Virus genome (UHGV): UHGV-0331195
Source of the DNA: a virus
Direction: 5' to 3' (one strand)
DNA length: 11,597 nucleotides
This document shows, piece after piece, positions 1-11,395 of this stretch (its first letter is position 1; each line of letters opens with the position of its first letter). The notes under the pieces were generated by a model. It ran no database searches and was not told where the DNA came from. It saw only the letters and a program-made list of their open reading frames with translations. The translations under genes and the position numbers were made by a program.

Positions 1-20
1 CAGTTAGCGAAATATCTTAC

Positions 21-48
21 TTGCAATCGGTGTGGAAAACGGTAGTAT
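21..48 (+). promoter_or_regulatory. Candidate sigma70 promoter for the tRNA gene: TTGCAA (21-26), 16-nt spacer, TAGTAT (43-48)
   Basis: Seen in sequence: -35/-10-like hexamers at correct spacing, ending about 14 nt before the tRNA 5' end. Not tested. Confidence 0.3.
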
Positions 49-62
49 TAGCAGCCACGAGT

Positions 63-139
63 CGGCACGTAGCGCAGCCTGGTAGCGCACCGTCATGGGG
101 TGTCGGGGGTCGGAGGTTCAAATCCTCTCGTGCCGACCA
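63..139 (+). tRNA. proL: tRNA-Pro, anticodon GGG
   Basis: 77-nt cloverleaf: acceptor stem CGGCACG/CGTGCCG, D-arm GCGC-AGCCTGGTA-GCGC, anticodon loop ATGGGGT (GGG), T-arm GGAGG-TTCAAAT-CCTCT, 3' CCA encoded. Matches my recollection of enterobacterial proL. Confidence 0.9.
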
Positions 140-177
140 AATCGCCCACCGGAAAGCACCGGATAAGACAGGGATAA

Positions 178-208
178 CCCGCTAATCACTTGATTGGCGG
201 GTTTTTTT
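178..208 (+). terminator. Rho-independent terminator after the tRNA (stem CCCGCTAATCA / TGATTGGCGGG, then T7)
   Basis: GC-rich hairpin followed by TTTTTTT at 202-208. Probably island-supplied sequence that restores tRNA 3' processing/termination at attL. Confidence 0.6.
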
Positions 209-220
209 ATGTTTTTTAGT

Positions 221-240
221 CACCGAACATCACCGGATTT
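221..240 (+). promoter_or_regulatory. Conserved element CACCG-N5-CACCGGATT, copy A, about 110 bp upstream of int
   Basis: CACCGAACATCACCGGATTT here and CACCGGAATACACCGGATTC at 2051-2070 share identical half-site spacing. Candidate activator (AlpA?) binding site. Confidence 0.35.
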
Positions 241-261
241 ATAAGCTATCAGCCGGATTTT

Positions 262-316
262 TTAGTTATACGTTTAGTTATACGGGCTGGCGTATAACTA
301 AAGCCGTATAACTAAA
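262..316. repeat. Integrase arm-type binding sites: TTAGTTATACG x2 direct (262-272, 274-284) and CGTATAACTAA x2 inverted (291-301, 306-316)
   Basis: Four copies of an 11-mer in a direct/inverted arrangement between the att core and int; the same 11-mer recurs twice at 11291-11313 near the other end. Confidence 0.6.
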
Positions 317-347
317 ACCCTGTTTTTTCGTGTGGAATCATAGACAT

Positions 348-1589
348 ATGGCGAGAAAAACACACCCATTAACCACAGTGCAGATCAAAGCAGCCAGACC
401 AGCGCAAAAGGAGTACACCCTGCAGGACGGCGGAGGGCTTTTTCTCCTGGTCAAACCGTCTGGATCAAAACTCTGGAGATTTTCCTACTACCGACCATCG
501 GACAAAAAAAGAATATTGCTGAGTTTTGGATCGCTTGAAGATGTTTCCCTGGCTGATGCCAGAAAACGCCGTAGCGAGTACAGGACGTTAATCAGTGCCG
601 GAACTGACCCGCAGGACCACGAGAGGCAAAAAAGAGAGACAGAGGCCCGAAGACAAGGGAACACGTTCGAAAATGTGGCGGCGGCATGGTACCAGGTGAA
701 AATCAGCCAGAATCTGGCCCCCAACACGATTAAAGACATCTGGCGTTCGCTGGATAAATATGTATTCCCGTTCATCGGCAACACGCCAATAGATACCCTC
801 ACCGCCCGAAGGTTCGTTGAAGTGCTTACCCCCATCAAGGAGCGCGGCAACCTGGAAACACTCAAGCGGGTTTTACAGCGCGTTAATGAGGTAATGGATT
901 ACGCCGCCAACAGTGGGCTGATTGATGCCAATCCGGCTATGAATGTGCGTAAGGCGTTTCCCTCACCTGTAAAAAAACATATGCCAACAATCCGCCCCGA
1001 ACAGCTGCCGGAGCTTATGCAGGCTTTATCAGTATCGGCAACAGAACGGCAGACCAGATTACTGATTGAATGGCAGTTACTGACCGTAACCCGTCCCGCC
1101 GAAGCGTCATCAACGCGGTGGGATGAAATCAACCTGGACGCGAAGCAATGGACGATACCTGCCGGACGCATGAAGATGCGCAGGGATCACGTTATCCCGC
1201 TTTCCGGTCAGGCTATGGCGGTGCTGGAGGCCATGAAACCAATCAGCCACCACCGCAATTACGTTTTCCCAAGTCTGAAAGACCCACAGCAGCCGATGAA
1301 CAGCCAGACAGCTAACGCAGCATTGCGGCGTATGGGATTCGCTGGCGTGCTGGTGTCTCATGGATTACGCGCCATATTCAGCACAGCAGCGAACGAGGAA
1401 GGATTCGAGCCGGACGTAATAGAGGCGGCACTTGCCCACGTCGACACCAACGAAGTTAGACGGGCATACAACCGGAGCAACTATATAGAAAAACGCATCG
1501 TGCTGATGCGCTGGTGGGGCGAATTTGTCGAGGCTGCGGCGACGGGCGTAACCCTCGCCAGTGGTAAAAGGGGTATCCGAGCCGTGTAG
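348..1589 (+). CDS. int: Tyrosine-type site-specific integrase, P4/CP4-57 family
   Basis: ORF 330-1589; start chosen at ATG 348 (MARKTHPLT...). N-terminus (PLTTVQIKAARP...YTLQDGGGLFLLVKPSGSKLWRFSYY) matches the arm-binding domain signature I recall for P4-type integrases; C-terminus has HGLR and RAYNRSNY catalytic-region motifs. Adjacent to a tRNA. Confidence 0.85.
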   Translation: MARKTHPLTTVQIKAARPAQKEYTLQDGGGLFLLVKPSGSKLWRFSYYRPSDKKRILLSFGSLEDVSLADARKRRSEYRTLISAGTDPQDHERQKRETEARRQGNTFENVAAAWYQVKISQNLAPNTIKDIWRSLDKYVFPFIGNTPIDTLTARRFVEVLTPIKERGNLETLKRVLQRVNEVMDYAANSGLIDANPAMNVRKAFPSPVKKHMPTIRPEQLPELMQALSVSATERQTRLLIEWQLLTVTRPAEASSTRWDEINLDAKQWTIPAGRMKMRRDHVIPLSGQAMAVLEAMKPISHHRNYVFPSLKDPQQPMNSQTANAALRRMGFAGVLVSHGLRAIFSTAANEEGFEPDVIEAALAHVDTNEVRRAYNRSNYIEKRIVLMRWWGEFVEAAATGVTLASGKRGIRAV

Positions 1590-1666
1590 CTGTACAGAAA
1601 ACCAGTAAAAACTACGAAAACCATGTAAAACCGTCGTATAATTGCATCAAATTTAACGACAAGGCC

Positions 1667-1918
1667 GTGAAACATGAAACCGTTAAGATGCAAAAAAATA
1701 TCAGATGCAATTGCGACGGGCTGCAACTGGCCCTGATGGTTCAGCATGAATTTTGGTCAACCTACGATCCGGAGGACAGAACGACGGCCCCATCAAAAAA
1801 ACAGGTAGTAGATTTTCTGGTATCCCGTGGCGCTTCCAGAAATCTGGCGGTAAGTATTGATAAGGTCGTACGTCCGGCATCTATGAAGATCGGAGGCAGG
1901 CCCAAAAAATGGCGGTAA
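1667..1918 (+). CDS. Small hypothetical protein, possible HTH DNA-binding protein or excisionase-like RDF
   Basis: 83-aa ORF (GTG 1667 or ATG 1688), C-terminal ...SIDKVVRPASMKIGGRPKKWR resembles the end of AlpA/Xis-type HTH proteins. Weak RBS; followed by a terminator. Position between int and alpA. Confidence 0.35.
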   Translation: MKHETVKMQKNIRCNCDGLQLALMVQHEFWSTYDPEDRTTAPSKKQVVDFLVSRGASRNLAVSIDKVVRPASMKIGGRPKKWR

Positions 1919-1924
1919 CAATCC

Positions 1925-1951
1925 TGGAAGCGGCAGAAATGCCGCTTTTTT
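1925..1951 (+). terminator. Rho-independent terminator (GCGGCAgaaaTGCCGC then T-run)
   Basis: Hairpin plus TTTTTTT immediately after the 83-aa ORF. Confidence 0.6.
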
Positions 1952-1981
1952 TATAATTCCATTTCAAATCATCAATATAAA

Positions 1982-2070
1982 AAACGGTGTATACCGTTTA
2001 AAAACGGTGGGAACTGTTTTTACCCATATCCGATGATTTACCGTATTTGTCACCGGAATACACCGGATTC
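1982..2070 (+). promoter_or_regulatory. alpA upstream control region: palindrome AAACGG-TGTATA-CCGTTT (1982-1999) and CACCG-N5-CACCGGATT copy B (2051-2070)
   Basis: Perfect 6-bp inverted arms with 6-bp spacer; the second element ends 15 bp before the alpA ATG and matches the copy upstream of int. Confidence 0.4.
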
Positions 2071-2085
2071 ACAAGGTAAATCACG

Positions 2086-2292
2086 ATGGAAGCAATCAGA
2101 AAAATTATCTTTCGCCAGGAAGTAAAAAAAATTATCCACATCAAGGCAGACAGCACGCTGCAAAGCATGATCAACGCCGGAGAATTTCCGCAGGGTTTTC
2201 GCGTTGGTTTACGCCGTCGCGGATGGTATGAGGATGATGTGTTGTCCTGGCAGAAAGAACGCGAAGAGGAAGCACGCGGAACGGCTGCTTAA
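2086..2292 (+). CDS. alpA: AlpA-family phage transcriptional regulator
   Basis: 68 aa; ...RQEVKKIIHIKADSTLQSMINAGEFPQGFRVGLRRRGWYEDDVLSW fits the AlpA pattern as I recall it (R..EV...ST.....G.FP...G.R..W.E..V..W). Same orientation as int, as in Gram-negative PICIs. Confidence 0.7.
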   Translation: MEAIRKIIFRQEVKKIIHIKADSTLQSMINAGEFPQGFRVGLRRRGWYEDDVLSWQKEREEEARGTAA

Positions 2293-2952: not shown

Positions 2953-3045
2953 CCTTTATTAAGGTAATCGATGAAAAGACAAAGCCCCGCAAGTGTCGTT
3001 ACCACTCGCAGGGCTTCTAACCAACAACGTAAACTAGGAGCCGTT

Positions 3046-3603
3046 ATGGTTGCTGTAAATCATATACCACACCTTGTACACACACAAACGGCCTTTGTGT
3101 GGCGTTTTCTGGCCCTGAATATCGGAGAAAAAAACCGCTTGATCGCCACCAGCAAAAATGGCTATGATTCCCGCGCACCTCATAAAACGGGTGTCGGGAT
3201 TAGCCTCCTGAAAACAACTGAAGCGCACAGCACGCGCCCCGCGTGTTTTTTTGTGCCGCATAGTCACACCTTATCAATGGTGGGCTGTACGGGGGCGGAG
3301 CAATCCGCGCCGGTTTCTTCAGTGTCCGGTAAGGCTAACCCTGTACAGTCCGCCACCAGCGAAATTAGCCTTTTGCGTGGCGGTTATCTTAACCACACTG
3401 AGGAGGCTGCCAACATGGCTACTATCCCTACCCTTGTACATTCTCAAACCGCATTTATCTGGCGCTTTATCATCTTTGGCGCGTCAGAATCTCAAATCAT
3501 CCACGTAACCGCCTGGACGGAACGCGAAGCGCGTAGCCGTTGCCCGTCCGGTTGTATTGCGGTATTCGCCGCCCGTATTCGTCAGGGGGTGTGCCATGCC
3601 TGA
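3046..3603 (+). CDS. Icd-like (host cell-division inhibitor family) ORF with in-frame tandem duplication; start uncertain (2971, 3046 or 3415)
   Basis: Single frame 2971-3603 with no stop. AGGAG RBS before ATG 3046. N-terminal motif LVHTQTAFVWRF recurs as LVHSQTAFIWRF at the second copy; degenerate TEAHSTRPAC versus TEREARSRCP. Confidence 0.4.
   Translation: MVAVNHIPHLVHTQTAFVWRFLALNIGEKNRLIATSKNGYDSRAPHKTGVGISLLKTTEAHSTRPACFFVPHSHTLSMVGCTGAEQSAPVSSVSGKANPVQSATSEISLLRGGYLNHTEEAANMATIPTLVHSQTAFIWRFIIFGASESQIIHVTAWTEREARSRCPSGCIAVFAARIRQGVCHA
3415..3603 (+). CDS. Icd-like protein, second and better conserved copy, 62 aa
   Basis: Strong SD GAGGAGG (3400-3406) before ATG 3415. MATIPTLVHSQTAFIWRFIIFGAS...TEREARSRCP...FAARIRQGVCHA fits my recollection of Icd-like small proteins in P4-like/PICI elements. 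Confidence 0.5.
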   Translation: MATIPTLVHSQTAFIWRFIIFGASESQIIHVTAWTEREARSRCPSGCIAVFAARIRQGVCHA

Positions 3604-5967: not shown

Positions 5968-5982
5968 TTTTTTGCAATGGCT

Positions 5983-6207
5983 GTCTACCCTGTCTACCTG
6001 AGTAAAGAAAAATACATTTAATTCAGTATATTAACTTAGGTAGACAGCCTTTTTTCACTGTCTACCTACTATCTACCCTCTCTACCTGATTTTACCTGAA
6101 TCAGACAGGGAGGTAGATACGGGGTAGATAGTGGATAAAAGCACTCTACCCCGCTGAAAGCCGCGCCATTACTGGCATGAGAGCCAGTAAGGTAGATAAG
6201 GTAGACA
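5983..6207. repeat. Origin of replication: iteron cluster with at least 12 copies of (T)GTCTACC / GGTAGA(C/T)A in both orientations around an AT-rich spacer (6001-6038)
   Basis: Direct copies at 5983-5990, 5991-5998, 6059-6066, 6071-6077, 6082-6088, 6144-6150; inverted copies at 6039-6046, 6113-6120, 6123-6130, 6191-6198, 6200-6207. Resembles P4 ori/crr octamer iterons bound by alpha. Confidence 0.7.
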
Positions 6208-9086: not shown

Positions 9087-9088
9087 AC

Positions 9089-9262
9089 GGGTCCTTTCCG
9101 GCATATGGACCCGTTACGGGGCGGCGACCTCGCGGTTTTTCGCTATTTATGAGCCTTTTCAGGGGGGTGGTGGTGGTTTTGTTGTTTGATCTATCTTTAT
9201 GAATGAAAAGGGAAAGATGCAAGCAATACACCAACCTGAAGCAGTAATTAAGTTGGTGTATT
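9089..9262 (+). other. cos site 1 (lambda-type): cosQ-like GGGTCCTTTCCGG (9089-9101), cosN 12-nt cohesive-end sequence GGGCGGCGACCT (9119-9130), divergent cosB region with hairpin AATACACCAAC/GTTGGTGTATT (9225-9262)
   Basis: CGTTACG|GGGCGGCGACCTCGCGG-TTTTCGCTATTTATGA matches my memory of the lambda right-end/left-end junction for about 35 nt, then diverges with no CGTTTCC-type R elements. Sits directly upstream of the Nu1-like gene, as in lambda. Confidence 0.75.
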
Positions 9263-9263
9263 A

Positions 9264-9806
9264 ATGAAATCTCATCTGATGAACAAAAAAAACATGGCGA
9301 AAAGCTGCCGTGTAAGTGCGACAGCGTTCGACAAGTGGGGAGTAACTCCCGTTGAGCGTAAAGGCCGTGAGGCGTTTTATGATGTTGCCAGCGTGATAGA
9401 AAATAGGGTTAACAATGCAATTAGCCAGCTTATAAACGACAAAGGCGAGATTGACGATGATGAACTTTTACGAGTCAGGATCAGATTACTGACAGCACAG
9501 GCAGAGGCGCAGGAACTTAAAAACGATCGCGATCGCGGTGACGTGATTGATACTGAGTTTTGCCTGTACGCGCTTTCAAAGCTGGCGAGTCAGATTTCAT
9601 CAATCATGGACAGCCTCCCGCTTACTATGCAAAGGAGCTTCCCACAGATTACCCCCGCCATGCTGGATAGGCTTAAAAGGGAAGTGGTTAAAGCCTGTAA
9701 TGCCAGTGCCAGAGTTGCCGACAACCTCCCACAGATACTGGCTGATTACTTGAAAGAAACAACCGGAAACGTACCGGAAAAGTTGCTACAGAAGAAAGGC
9801 GAGTAA
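9264..9806 (+). CDS. Terminase small subunit, lambda gpNu1 family; start uncertain (9264, 9279 or 9294)
   Basis: C-terminal two-thirds LLTAQAEAQELKNDRDRGDVIDTEFCLYALSKLASQISSIMDSLPLTMQRSFPQI...LDRLKREVVKACN closely parallels recalled Nu1 (LTRAQADAQELKNARDSAEVVETAFCTFVLSRIAGEIASILDGLPLSVQRRFPEL...FLKRDIIKAMN). N-terminal DNA-binding region is much more divergent. Confidence 0.8.
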   Translation: MKSHLMNKKNMAKSCRVSATAFDKWGVTPVERKGREAFYDVASVIENRVNNAISQLINDKGEIDDDELLRVRIRLLTAQAEAQELKNDRDRGDVIDTEFCLYALSKLASQISSIMDSLPLTMQRSFPQITPAMLDRLKREVVKACNASARVADNLPQILADYLKETTGNVPEKLLQKKGE

Positions 9807-9824: not shown

Positions 9825-10030
9825 ACAAAACTGAGAAACGACATGAAAGCGTCATAAATCGCCATTTTAGATGATTACCGTGTCGTTTCTTTTTATTGTG
9901 TATCTATTTAAAAACAAATAGTTATGTTCGAGAAGTACCGACATGCTTTTTCCAGAAAAATTTTCATAAACAGATAAAAACCGCGAGGTCGCCGCCCCGT
10001 AACGGGCCATAATTCCAGGAAGGACCCGAC
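9825..10030 (-). other. cos site 2, inverted: cosQ-like (9998-10030), cosN GGGCGGCGACCT on minus strand (9986-9997), lambda-like cosB with R-type elements GAAACGACA (9835-9843) / TGTCGTTTC (9882-9890)
   Basis: The reverse complement of 9825-10030 aligns with the recalled lambda left end over about 170 nt (cosN, TTTATGAAAATTTT, CTTCT.G.ACATAACT..TGTTTTTA..TA, AAAAAGAAACGACA, TGTCGTTTC). 31 nt around cosN are identical to cos site 1 in inverted orientation. cosB abuts the terS stop tail-to-tail. Confidence 0.7.
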
Positions 10031-11290: not shown

Positions 11291-11313
11291 TTAGTTATAC
11301 GTTTGGTTATACG
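11291..11313. repeat. Integrase arm-type sites near attR: TTAGTTATACG (11291-11301) and TTGGTTATACG (11303-11313)
   Basis: Same 11-mer as at 262-284, about 60 bp from the attR core. Confidence 0.55.
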
Positions 11314-11374
11314 GTTTAAAAGTTGAATCGATAATATTGATTAAAATCATACTGTTACACGCTCAATTAAACTA

Positions 11375-11395
11375 CTCTCGTGGACCAAAAATCCC
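11375..11395 (+). other. attR core: degenerate direct repeat of the tRNA-Pro 3' end
   Basis: CTCTCGTGGACCAAAAATCCC versus tRNA 3' CTCTCGTGCCGACCAAATCGCCC (125-147); 8 + 7 contiguous identical bases. Confidence 0.5.

Follow-up and report, generated by a model that had tools for sequence, protein, structure and literature searches.

The window analysed here, i.e., the whole 11,597-nucleotide stretch of virus genome UHGV-0331195, contains a short element of the form CACCG-N5-CACCGGAT in three copies, at 147–164, 221–238 and 2051–2068. Two of these lie in front of the integrase gene int and one lies in front of alpA. By its sequence, the window is a capsid-encoding satellite of about 11.3 kb of the phage-inducible chromosomal island (PICI) type, inserted at the tRNA-Pro gene proL. 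The clusters around the three copies, named B1 (147–177), B2 (221–240) and B3 (2051–2070), are best explained as phased direct-repeat sites for the small protein AlpA. AlpA would act on the left attachment site (attL) as a recombination directionality factor (RDF) and at its own gene as an autoregulator, an explanation that is given a probability of about 0.6. The sites are non-random, they are conserved in position and phasing, they are confined to one att arm and the region upstream of alpA, and they are distinct from the arm-type sites of the integrase.

Three copies of a phased direct repeat

A search of the window for CACCGNNNNNCACCGGAT, allowing up to two mismatches, yielded exactly three perfect matches, compared to 0.17 expected by chance, and none of 200 shuffled sequences reached three copies. 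The CACCGGA heptamer occurs seven times, against 1.25 expected, with five of the seven inside the three pairs of half-sites (dyads). The copies at 221 and 2051 are alike over 33 nt, with 76% identity (repeat family D14). In all three clusters the half-sites are arranged head-to-tail with a spacing of 10 bp. The half-site word is CACCGGA in this island and YCGG(A/T) in the family as a whole.

A sequence-only reading of this DNA had described two 20-mers, CACCGAACATCACCGGATTT (221–240) and CACCGGAATACACCGGATTC (2051–2070), lying upstream of two genes on the same strand, int and alpA. The sequences and coordinates of both are exact and both genes are on the plus strand. A third copy, CACCGGAAAGCACCGGAT at 147–164, starting 8 nt past the 3′ end of tRNA-Pro, had been overlooked. 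The int-side copies do precede int, but they are not simply upstream of it, as they sit inside attL, with B1 located 6 nt from the crossover segment and 5′ of the tRNA terminator that the island supplies. B3 ends about 15–18 nt before the ATG of alpA.

Conservation of layout and spacing in related islands

Relatives were gathered through AlpA homologues, an integrase profile in species genomes, viral contigs and E. coli genomes. The layout was compared in 13 islands with complete left ends, representing about seven types from Escherichia and Rosenbergiella and three integration sites (tRNA-Pro proL, tRNA-Pro proM and ssrA). Motif conservation in related islands had been named earlier as a way to check the element, and the layout is kept in all 13, running from the core through B1, the terminator supplied by the island, B2 and four A repeats (see below) to int. 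The core is separated from B1 by 6 nt (8 nt in the ssrA islands), B1 from B2 by 73/74 or 83/84 nt, B2 from the first A repeat by 42 or 32 nt, and this repeat from the int ATG by 84–86, 64 or 54 nt. Among islands the inter-site distances vary only by steps of about 10 bp, i.e., one helical turn, as is expected of a phased nucleoprotein complex. In most relatives, B1 consists of three 10-bp repeats at the same place, for instance ATTCGGTTAG TATCGTTTAC TACCGGAAAC in L080.

Of 35 distinct sequences upstream of alpA, 28 contain two CGG cores 10 bp apart (CGG-N7-CGG); among random windows of equal length, 3.1% do. This dyad has the family consensus nnCCGGAAT(A/C) CnCCGG(A/T)TT and starts 33–37 nt 5′ of the start codon in most types, even where the surrounding upstream sequence is unalignable. 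Immediately 5′ of B3, at 2038–2048, lies a conserved, half-site-like TTTACCGTATTT block, out of register by about 12 bp. Nothing else of the B3 cluster is kept in L002 and L014.

The comparison with L002, also an E. coli island at the same locus, separates the B sites from their surroundings. B1 and B2 are only 43 and 45% identical between the two islands, versus 84% for the terminator between them, 88% for the A repeats and 96% for the core. The half-site word changes from CACCGGA to CATCGTT, and the two AlpA proteins are 65% identical, with the changes Q26T, S27E and A31K in the predicted recognition helix. Within the AlpA type of the window (L003 and L010), the half-sites are kept and the 3-nt spacers vary.

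A separate repeat family is the arm-type site of the integrase

The second repeat family, A, has the word TAGTTATACG and six matches in the window against 0.47 expected, every one of them in the att arms. A natural swap of integrase domains allows the two families to be told apart. The Int proteins of L080 and L087/88 are 97–98% identical over residues 101–413 and only 61–63% identical over residues 1–70. Between these islands the A-repeat word TAGTTATACG is replaced by GGGACTACAT, with B1, B2 and AlpA essentially unchanged. The A repeats thus track the N-terminal domain of Int and the B dyads do not, so that A is the arm-type site and B something else. TAGTTATACG is also found in both att arms, as is typical of arm-type sites, whereas there is no dyad near attR.

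In the attP sequence as reconstructed, the doubled A repeat falls at −83.5 and +135.5, counted from the crossover centre. For helper-embedded PICIs, a ‘doubled motif’, TGTATTGC-N-TGTATTGC, has been described on each att arm, with positions of −81 and +132 bp relative to the attP centre, its binder being left open between the arm domain of Int and AlpA (PMC10111431). Its counterpart here is the pair of A repeats, which has nearly the same geometry, and not the CACCG dyad. As the N-domain swap favours Int as the binder in this clade, the analysis suggests that, for this clade, the doubled motif is an integrase arm-type site.

Similarity of the three clusters

The relation between the three clusters was examined with a 20-column weight matrix that was trained only on the alpA-upstream dyads of island types other than the one scanned. 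The three best of 23,156 positions in the window are B3 (23.4), B1 (15.4) and B2 (14.3). B sites make up the four highest-scoring matches in L010, B2 of attL is the strongest match outside B3 in L080, L081, L083 and L088, and B1 ranks third and fourth in L004 and L007. The matrix also illustrates the confinement to one att arm, with 15.4 and 14.3 in the attL arm and at best 1.6 and 3.1 in the attR arm. It is weak for L002 and L014, where the half-site words have diverged (TTCGGTA, CATCGTT). An unbiased 19-mer test, which compared the alpA upstream region of an island with its own attL arm, was significant for the window type (16 of 19 matches; 0 of 200 shuffles). Because this was the only type with a significant result, a strong covariation claim was dropped in favour of the leave-type-out matrix. 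The claim made here is that the three clusters share the family-level motif YCGG(A/T) and the 10-bp phasing; no strict island-by-island covariation is claimed.

AlpA as the candidate binding protein

Only Int, AlpA and a DUF4222 protein are constant among the fully annotated islands (the window, L002, L003, L004, L007 and L010), and orf76, Ash and PerC are each absent from some islands that keep the dyads. The match of AlpA to PF05930 (E = 0.0028) is below the cut-off, and its PHROG matches are annotated ‘excisionase and transcriptional regulator’ (2.5e-6). The structural model (predicted local distance difference test score, pLDDT, 78) has the topology strand-helix-helix-wing-helix of a MerR-like winged helix. 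Its fold matches include, as the best among small proteins, the GIsul2 excisionase 8c3t (template modelling score 0.74; sequence E-value 0.07), together with BldC, mycobacteriophage Pukovnik Xis and MerR DNA-binding domains, with weak Foldseek E-values (at least 0.05) because the domain is tiny. The 19 close homologues of this AlpA subtype are all from E. coli or Shigella, and a scan of genome contigs with the single AlpA protein gave no match. A second scan of viral contigs, with an AlpA profile, contributed only two additions, a variant that carries the dyad (L151) and an AlpA homologue (L155). The latter, encoded at 3001–3162 of an 85-kb viral contig, is 63% identical and has no such integrase nearby and no CCGG dyad upstream; the AlpA family is thus not always coupled to the B-site architecture.

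The product of orf76, which is encoded between int and alpA, was considered as an Xis-like binder as well, on account of an ‘AlpA family’ homologue, P0037. This 90-residue protein, listed from the nematode Cooperia oncophora, joins the N-terminus of orf76 to the C-terminus of AlpA and is a deletion chimera of this island type that evidently stems from bacterial contamination. orf76 is modelled with confidence (pLDDT 80) as a bundle of three helices with a basic tail, for which searches gave neither a fold match, DNA-binding folds included, nor a family match. The gene is missing from L002, L014, L080–L088 and others that keep the dyads. As P0037 is a fusion of the two proteins and orf76 has no DNA-binding fold match, orf76 was rejected as an Xis-like binder.

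Proposed role of the sites in excision and autoregulation

In the proposed mechanism, a helper phage would switch on alpA, after which AlpA monomers would line up side by side and head-to-tail on the two clusters of the attL (P′) arm, B1 and B2. This would bend the DNA between the crossover and the four TAGTTATACG arm repeats, so that Int could assemble an excisive complex with attR, i.e., AlpA would have RDF activity. Additionally, AlpA would bind B3 in the leader or promoter region of alpA and thereby autoregulate its gene. All defining features of RDF sites that can be read from DNA are present: direct half-sites about one turn apart, a location in one att arm between core and arm sites, fixed helical phasing, and a cognate small winged-helix protein, AlpA, encoded beside int. 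The conserved site immediately 5′ of alpA across the family is what an autoregulatory operator would look like.

The sequence-only reading had offered two functions for the element, a site through which AlpA activates int and a site for a helper-encoded inducer. AlpA does stand as the best candidate binder, but activation of int is not upheld: the location of the int-side copies in attL, helically phased to the arm repeats, points to an excision-directing architecture rather than to promoter activation, and in EcCICFT073, the one PICI tested experimentally, AlpA turns on the promoter of its own gene and not Pint (PMC6092414). Overexpression of AlpA alone leads to int-dependent excision and replication of that island (PMC6092414). 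The helper-encoded inducer is unlikely, since the half-site words differ among islands of the same host and diverge with the island's own AlpA type.

Several observations weigh against the AlpA explanation. AlpA has been named as the binder by elimination and analogy, and as EcCICFT073 has another AlpA allele and other repeat words, the experiments on that island transfer only by analogy. The cross-type matrix did not recover the attL sites in L015–L017. The 19-mer test was not significant in L004, L007, L002, L016 and L080, with some arm windows mis-registered, and strict site-by-site covariation is thus weak. L015 and L081 have identical recognition helices and different second half-sites; more generally, differences in the predicted recognition helix do not map cleanly onto half-site differences. 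The first half-site of B1, 6 nt from the presumed crossover, may overlap a core-type site of Int. Lastly, a consensus scan found no sigma-70 promoter on the plus strand 5′ of int or alpA. With B3 only 15–18 nt from the ATG, a simple activator geometry cannot be drawn for alpA and repression is equally possible.

Manually drawn promoter candidates, TAGTCA-17-TATAAG around B2 and TTTACC...TATTTG before B3, were discarded as they are not conserved across types, so that regulation could be of either sign. In L002 and L014 a good promoter, TTGACT-N18-TATGCT, is found 5′ of the position equivalent to B3, which would place a B3-equivalent site in the leader. For the window type only, it may be speculated that, if the TAGTCA/TATAAG pair around B2 were Pint, int would be repressed by AlpA, in the manner of TorI.

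Alternative explanations

The dyads could be sites of the integrase itself, as extra arm-type sites or, in the case of B1, as the core-type site C′, and Int bound 5′ of alpA would then keep the island silent. B1 does start 6 nt from the presumed crossover, where core binding of Int is expected, and autoregulation of Int through att-overlapping promoters is known (PMC2951348). This alternative is nevertheless quite improbable, as the arm-type signature belongs to the separate TAGTTATACG family, with two direct and two inverted copies in attL and two copies in attR. Moreover, the dyads remain constant through the N-domain swap of L080/L087 and are absent from the attR arm, and the half-sites are unlike the flanks of attB, which the core-binding domain must also recognise. 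The att arms of tyrosine recombinases usually hold sites for host factors. This established knowledge (see also PMC2951348) could make the dyads sites of a nucleoid or architectural protein such as IHF or Fis that is used by the intasome, but very little speaks for it here: compared with consensus words, CACCGGA/YCGG matches neither that of IHF (WATCAANNNNTTR) nor that of Fis, the words differ between the E. coli islands of the window and L002 at the same locus, and the same dyad precedes alpA in 28 of 35 variants. Hardly more probable is that the copies are homologous remnants or shared promoter-like sequences without a common binding protein. The 33 nt shared by the copies at 221 and 2051 do include the flanking words TTnGTCA and AnAAG, which look like −35 and −10 hexamers, and in the window type B2 would exactly fill the 17-nt gap between TAGTCA and TATAAG. 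These flanks, however, are not conserved in the other island types, whereas the phased half-sites are. B1 lies between the tRNA 3′ end and the terminator, where no promoter is expected, and spacing quantised in 10-bp steps argues against remnants too.

The binding protein might also be another island protein (orf76, the DUF4222 protein or other) or a helper-phage inducer that switches on alpA and excision, which is unlikely although some points fit. Transcription of alpA in EcCICFT073 needs a still unidentified helper-phage factor (PMC6092414), the alpA promoter of the window has no recognisable sigma-70 hexamers, and orf76 occupies the classical xis position between int and alpA. On the other hand, orf76 is missing from dyad-keeping islands and its three-helix model has no DNA-binding fold match. 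The difference in half-site words among islands with the same host species and integration site fits an island-encoded specificity, and sites beside the crossover, in one arm and in helical phase with the arm repeats, are an RDF hallmark. A narrower form, in which a helper-encoded or otherwise unknown protein at the dyads would both unlock alpA transcription and remodel attL, is given rather little credit. If the helper version were true, the dyads would answer the long-standing question of which cis target the helper ‘inducer’ of Gram-negative PICIs acts on. In a milder variant of this improbable form, the protein at B3 would be AlpA, working from an unusual position (no more than about 35 nt from the start codon) by a non-classical mode of activation.

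Comparison with known systems

The sites X1-X1.5-X2 of lambda Xis are three head-to-tail monomer sites about one turn apart in a single att arm, on which the protein forms a bent micro-filament that directs excision. They are located in the P arm, distal from int and about 60–90 bp from the core, and Fis assists binding. The sites described here, in contrast, are on the P′ arm and begin 6 nt from the crossover, with a second cluster 74–84 bp further on. P4 Vis and HPI Hef are AlpA-family RDFs and regulators that combine excision with transcriptional control. CP4-57 AlpA and GIsul2 AlpA have the same dual role (PMC6092414, PMC9376610). All four share with the AlpA of the window the family name and the position directly 3′ of a P4-type int, but the sequence relation is remote, PF05930 being below the cut-off.

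A closer parallel in layout is TorI, which binds RDF half-sites GTTCG, GATCG and GTCCG (YCG core) in attL of KplE1, in blocks of two and three (PMC2951348). As in the window, int lies beside a tRNA-borne attL, and the sites are located between core and arm-type sites and overlap the regulatory region of int. TorI is a small winged-helix protein, like AlpA according to its model, and no sequence similarity between the two was detected. The block of three is int-proximal in KplE1, whereas here it is core-proximal. In addition, TorI represses intS and no matching operator at its own gene has been reported (PMC2951348). RdfS of ICEMlSymR7A, a winged-helix RDF, has binding sites both in the att region upstream of int and in its own promoter (PMC11963761), and it couples excision with autoregulation as proposed here. 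However, RdfS sites have no consensus and the protein has an extra N-terminal helix for oligomerisation (PMC11963761), as opposed to the crisp 10-bp-phased repeats of the window. BldC of Streptomyces, a 68-residue MerR-like monomer that lacks the dimerisation helix, forms head-to-tail multimers on variable numbers of direct repeats (PMC5859096); it regulates development and takes no part in recombination, unlike what is proposed for AlpA.

Two other analogies were considered and rejected. A MerR-type operator, i.e., a palindromic dimer site in a 19–20-bp spacer, does not agree with dyads that are direct repeats, nor with a 68-residue AlpA that has one C-terminal helix and no coiled-coil dimerisation helix. 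The AlpA of Pseudomonas aeruginosa is a 21Q-like antiterminator that contacts DNA through R128–H142 and loads onto RNA polymerase, and its binding element (ABE) is one GGGACG between −35 and −10 (PMC9371919). Fold and size differ from those of the AlpA studied here, and the common ground is limited to the name and a short promoter-near element.

EcCICFT073 itself (L096) uses different words with the same logic (15838–15908, 17195–17250 and 27063–27131). Both arms carry a doubled GGTGTAGTTAAT. The phased repeats are G(A/G)AACAAC, found in the int-alpA interval and, in inverted orientation, in each att arm.

Palindromes upstream of alpA

Besides B3, the alpA upstream region holds two adjacent imperfect palindromes. 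The palindrome AAACGG-N6-CCGTTT that had been noted at 1982–1999 is exact and was also flagged as a 7-pair hairpin. The region 1980–2021 is conserved in all relatives of the window type, with half-sites that drift singly and without compensatory changes, so the palindromes look like protein sites and not like RNA structure. An RNA explanation was rejected for this reason and because Rfam gave no match in 140–2085 apart from the tRNA. In sequence, the palindrome half-site, (C)ACCGT, is similar to that of the B dyads and to the L002-type word (CATCGTT, TACCGTT), with weak single-half-site matrix scores of 11.8–12.1. The palindromes co-occur with orf76 in 62 of 65 loci, which is uninformative as it is fully confounded with AlpA type. 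Candidate binders are AlpA in another geometry, orf76, or a helper signal.

The island and its attachment sites

The genes of the island all point rightward, in the order int, the 76-codon open reading frame (ORF) orf76, the AlpA-like gene, Ash, DUF4222, a D5-type primase, PerC, the major capsid protein E, the decoration protein D and a Nu1-like small terminase (TerS). The island has the characteristics of a Gram-negative PICI, i.e., a unidirectional int-alpA-pri module, a size of 11.3 kb (the norm being about 10–15 kb), its own att site and few morphogenesis genes. From the capsid gene to the end, the gene order is the same as in EcCICFT073. The Pfam domains of int are Arm-DNA-bind_3, Phage_int_M and Phage_integrase.

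All 5426 complete E. coli genomes match window positions 1–141 (yejM-proL) and only 312 of them run on into the island. The chromosome resumes at about 11390, according to a comparison with the empty site L001. The probable crossover segment is GACCAAA, at 135–141. The attR sequence is 2 nt shorter on the left side of GACCAAA, so the exchange would have taken place in or to the right of this segment. The tRNA-Pro fragment in attR is therefore 2 nt short (CTCTCGTG-GACCAAA versus CTCTCGTGCCGACCAAA), corresponding to the ‘damaged tRNA fragment’ that is described as a peculiarity of PICIs (PMC10111431). The features of both ends and of the int-alpA region are listed in Table 1.

Table 1. Features of the attachment sites and the int-alpA region of the island (window coordinates)
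Feature	Position	Strand	Description
tRNA-Pro (GGG), proL	63..139	+	ARAGORN and Rfam tRNA; integration target, 3′ end restored by the island
attL core	125..141	+	Identity block CTCTCGTGCCGACCAAA in common with attB; from comparison of attL, the L001 empty site and attR
B1	147..177	+	Phased direct repeats CACCGGAAAG / CACCGGATAA and degenerate third repeat GACAGGGATAA; adjoins the core
Intrinsic terminator for tRNA	176..210	+	Island-supplied; 12-pair stem and T run; parts B1 from B2
B2	221..240	+	Dyad CACCGAACAT / CACCGGATTT; 127 nt 5′ of the int ATG
A1, A2	263..272, 275..284	+	Doubled direct TAGTTATACG
A3, A4	291..300, 305..314	-	TAGTTATACG inverted, just 5′ of int
int	348..1589	+	P4-type tyrosine integrase with N-terminal arm-binding domain; Pfam PF13356, PF22022, PF00589
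orf76	1688..1918	+	76-residue protein, E. coli only; terminator follows at 1926–1949
Two adjacent imperfect palindromes	1980..1999, 2000..2021		AAAAACGGTGTATACCGTTT and AAAAACGGTGGGAACTGTTTTT; half-sites contain (C)ACCGT
B3	2051..2070	+	Dyad CACCGGAATA / CACCGGATTC; just 5′ of the alpA ribosome-binding site
alpA	2086..2292	+	68-residue winged-helix protein (model); predicted binder of B1, B2 and B3
attR (P) arm doubled repeat	11292..11313	+	TAGTTATACG and TGGTTATACG; family D10
attR core	11373..11389	+	CTCTCGTG-GACCAAA; tRNA-Pro 3′ fragment minus 2 nt, followed by the original chromosomal terminator

Elsewhere in the island, an isrK match (3175–3251, 61.8 bits) and a C4 antisense RNA match (3273–3360, 75.4 bits) were found with Rfam on the plus strand, inside an Ash-family ORF at 2971–3603. 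The pair is a P1/P7-type immunity RNA module in the ‘Bro zone’ of the satellite. Iteron-like repeats CTGTCTACC are located at 5981–6001 and 6049–6089, together with an inverted pair at 5990–6006 and 6031–6047 (families D1 and I22). Located directly 3′ of the primase gene, this region (5981–6089) probably serves as the replication origin. The Nu1-like TerS gene at 9264–9806 is flanked by an inverted repeat of 72 nt with 82% complementarity (9088–9159 and 9957–10028; family I1).

Implications for PICI biology

A description of AlpA operators or RDF sites for PICIs was not found in the searchable literature. Most likely, the B sites extend the paradigm of TorI, Xis and RdfS to these satellites and represent an ordinary kind of element that had not yet been mapped there, so that a specialist in site-specific recombination would not be surprised by them. 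The induction of Gram-negative PICIs is poorly understood, with AlpA being the master switch of EcCICFT073. A map with two attL clusters, an alpA operator and separate Int arm repeats could allow the role of AlpA in excision to be separated from its role in transcription. It also offers a rule for cross-talk between co-resident satellites, in which the same half-site word would mean the same AlpA.

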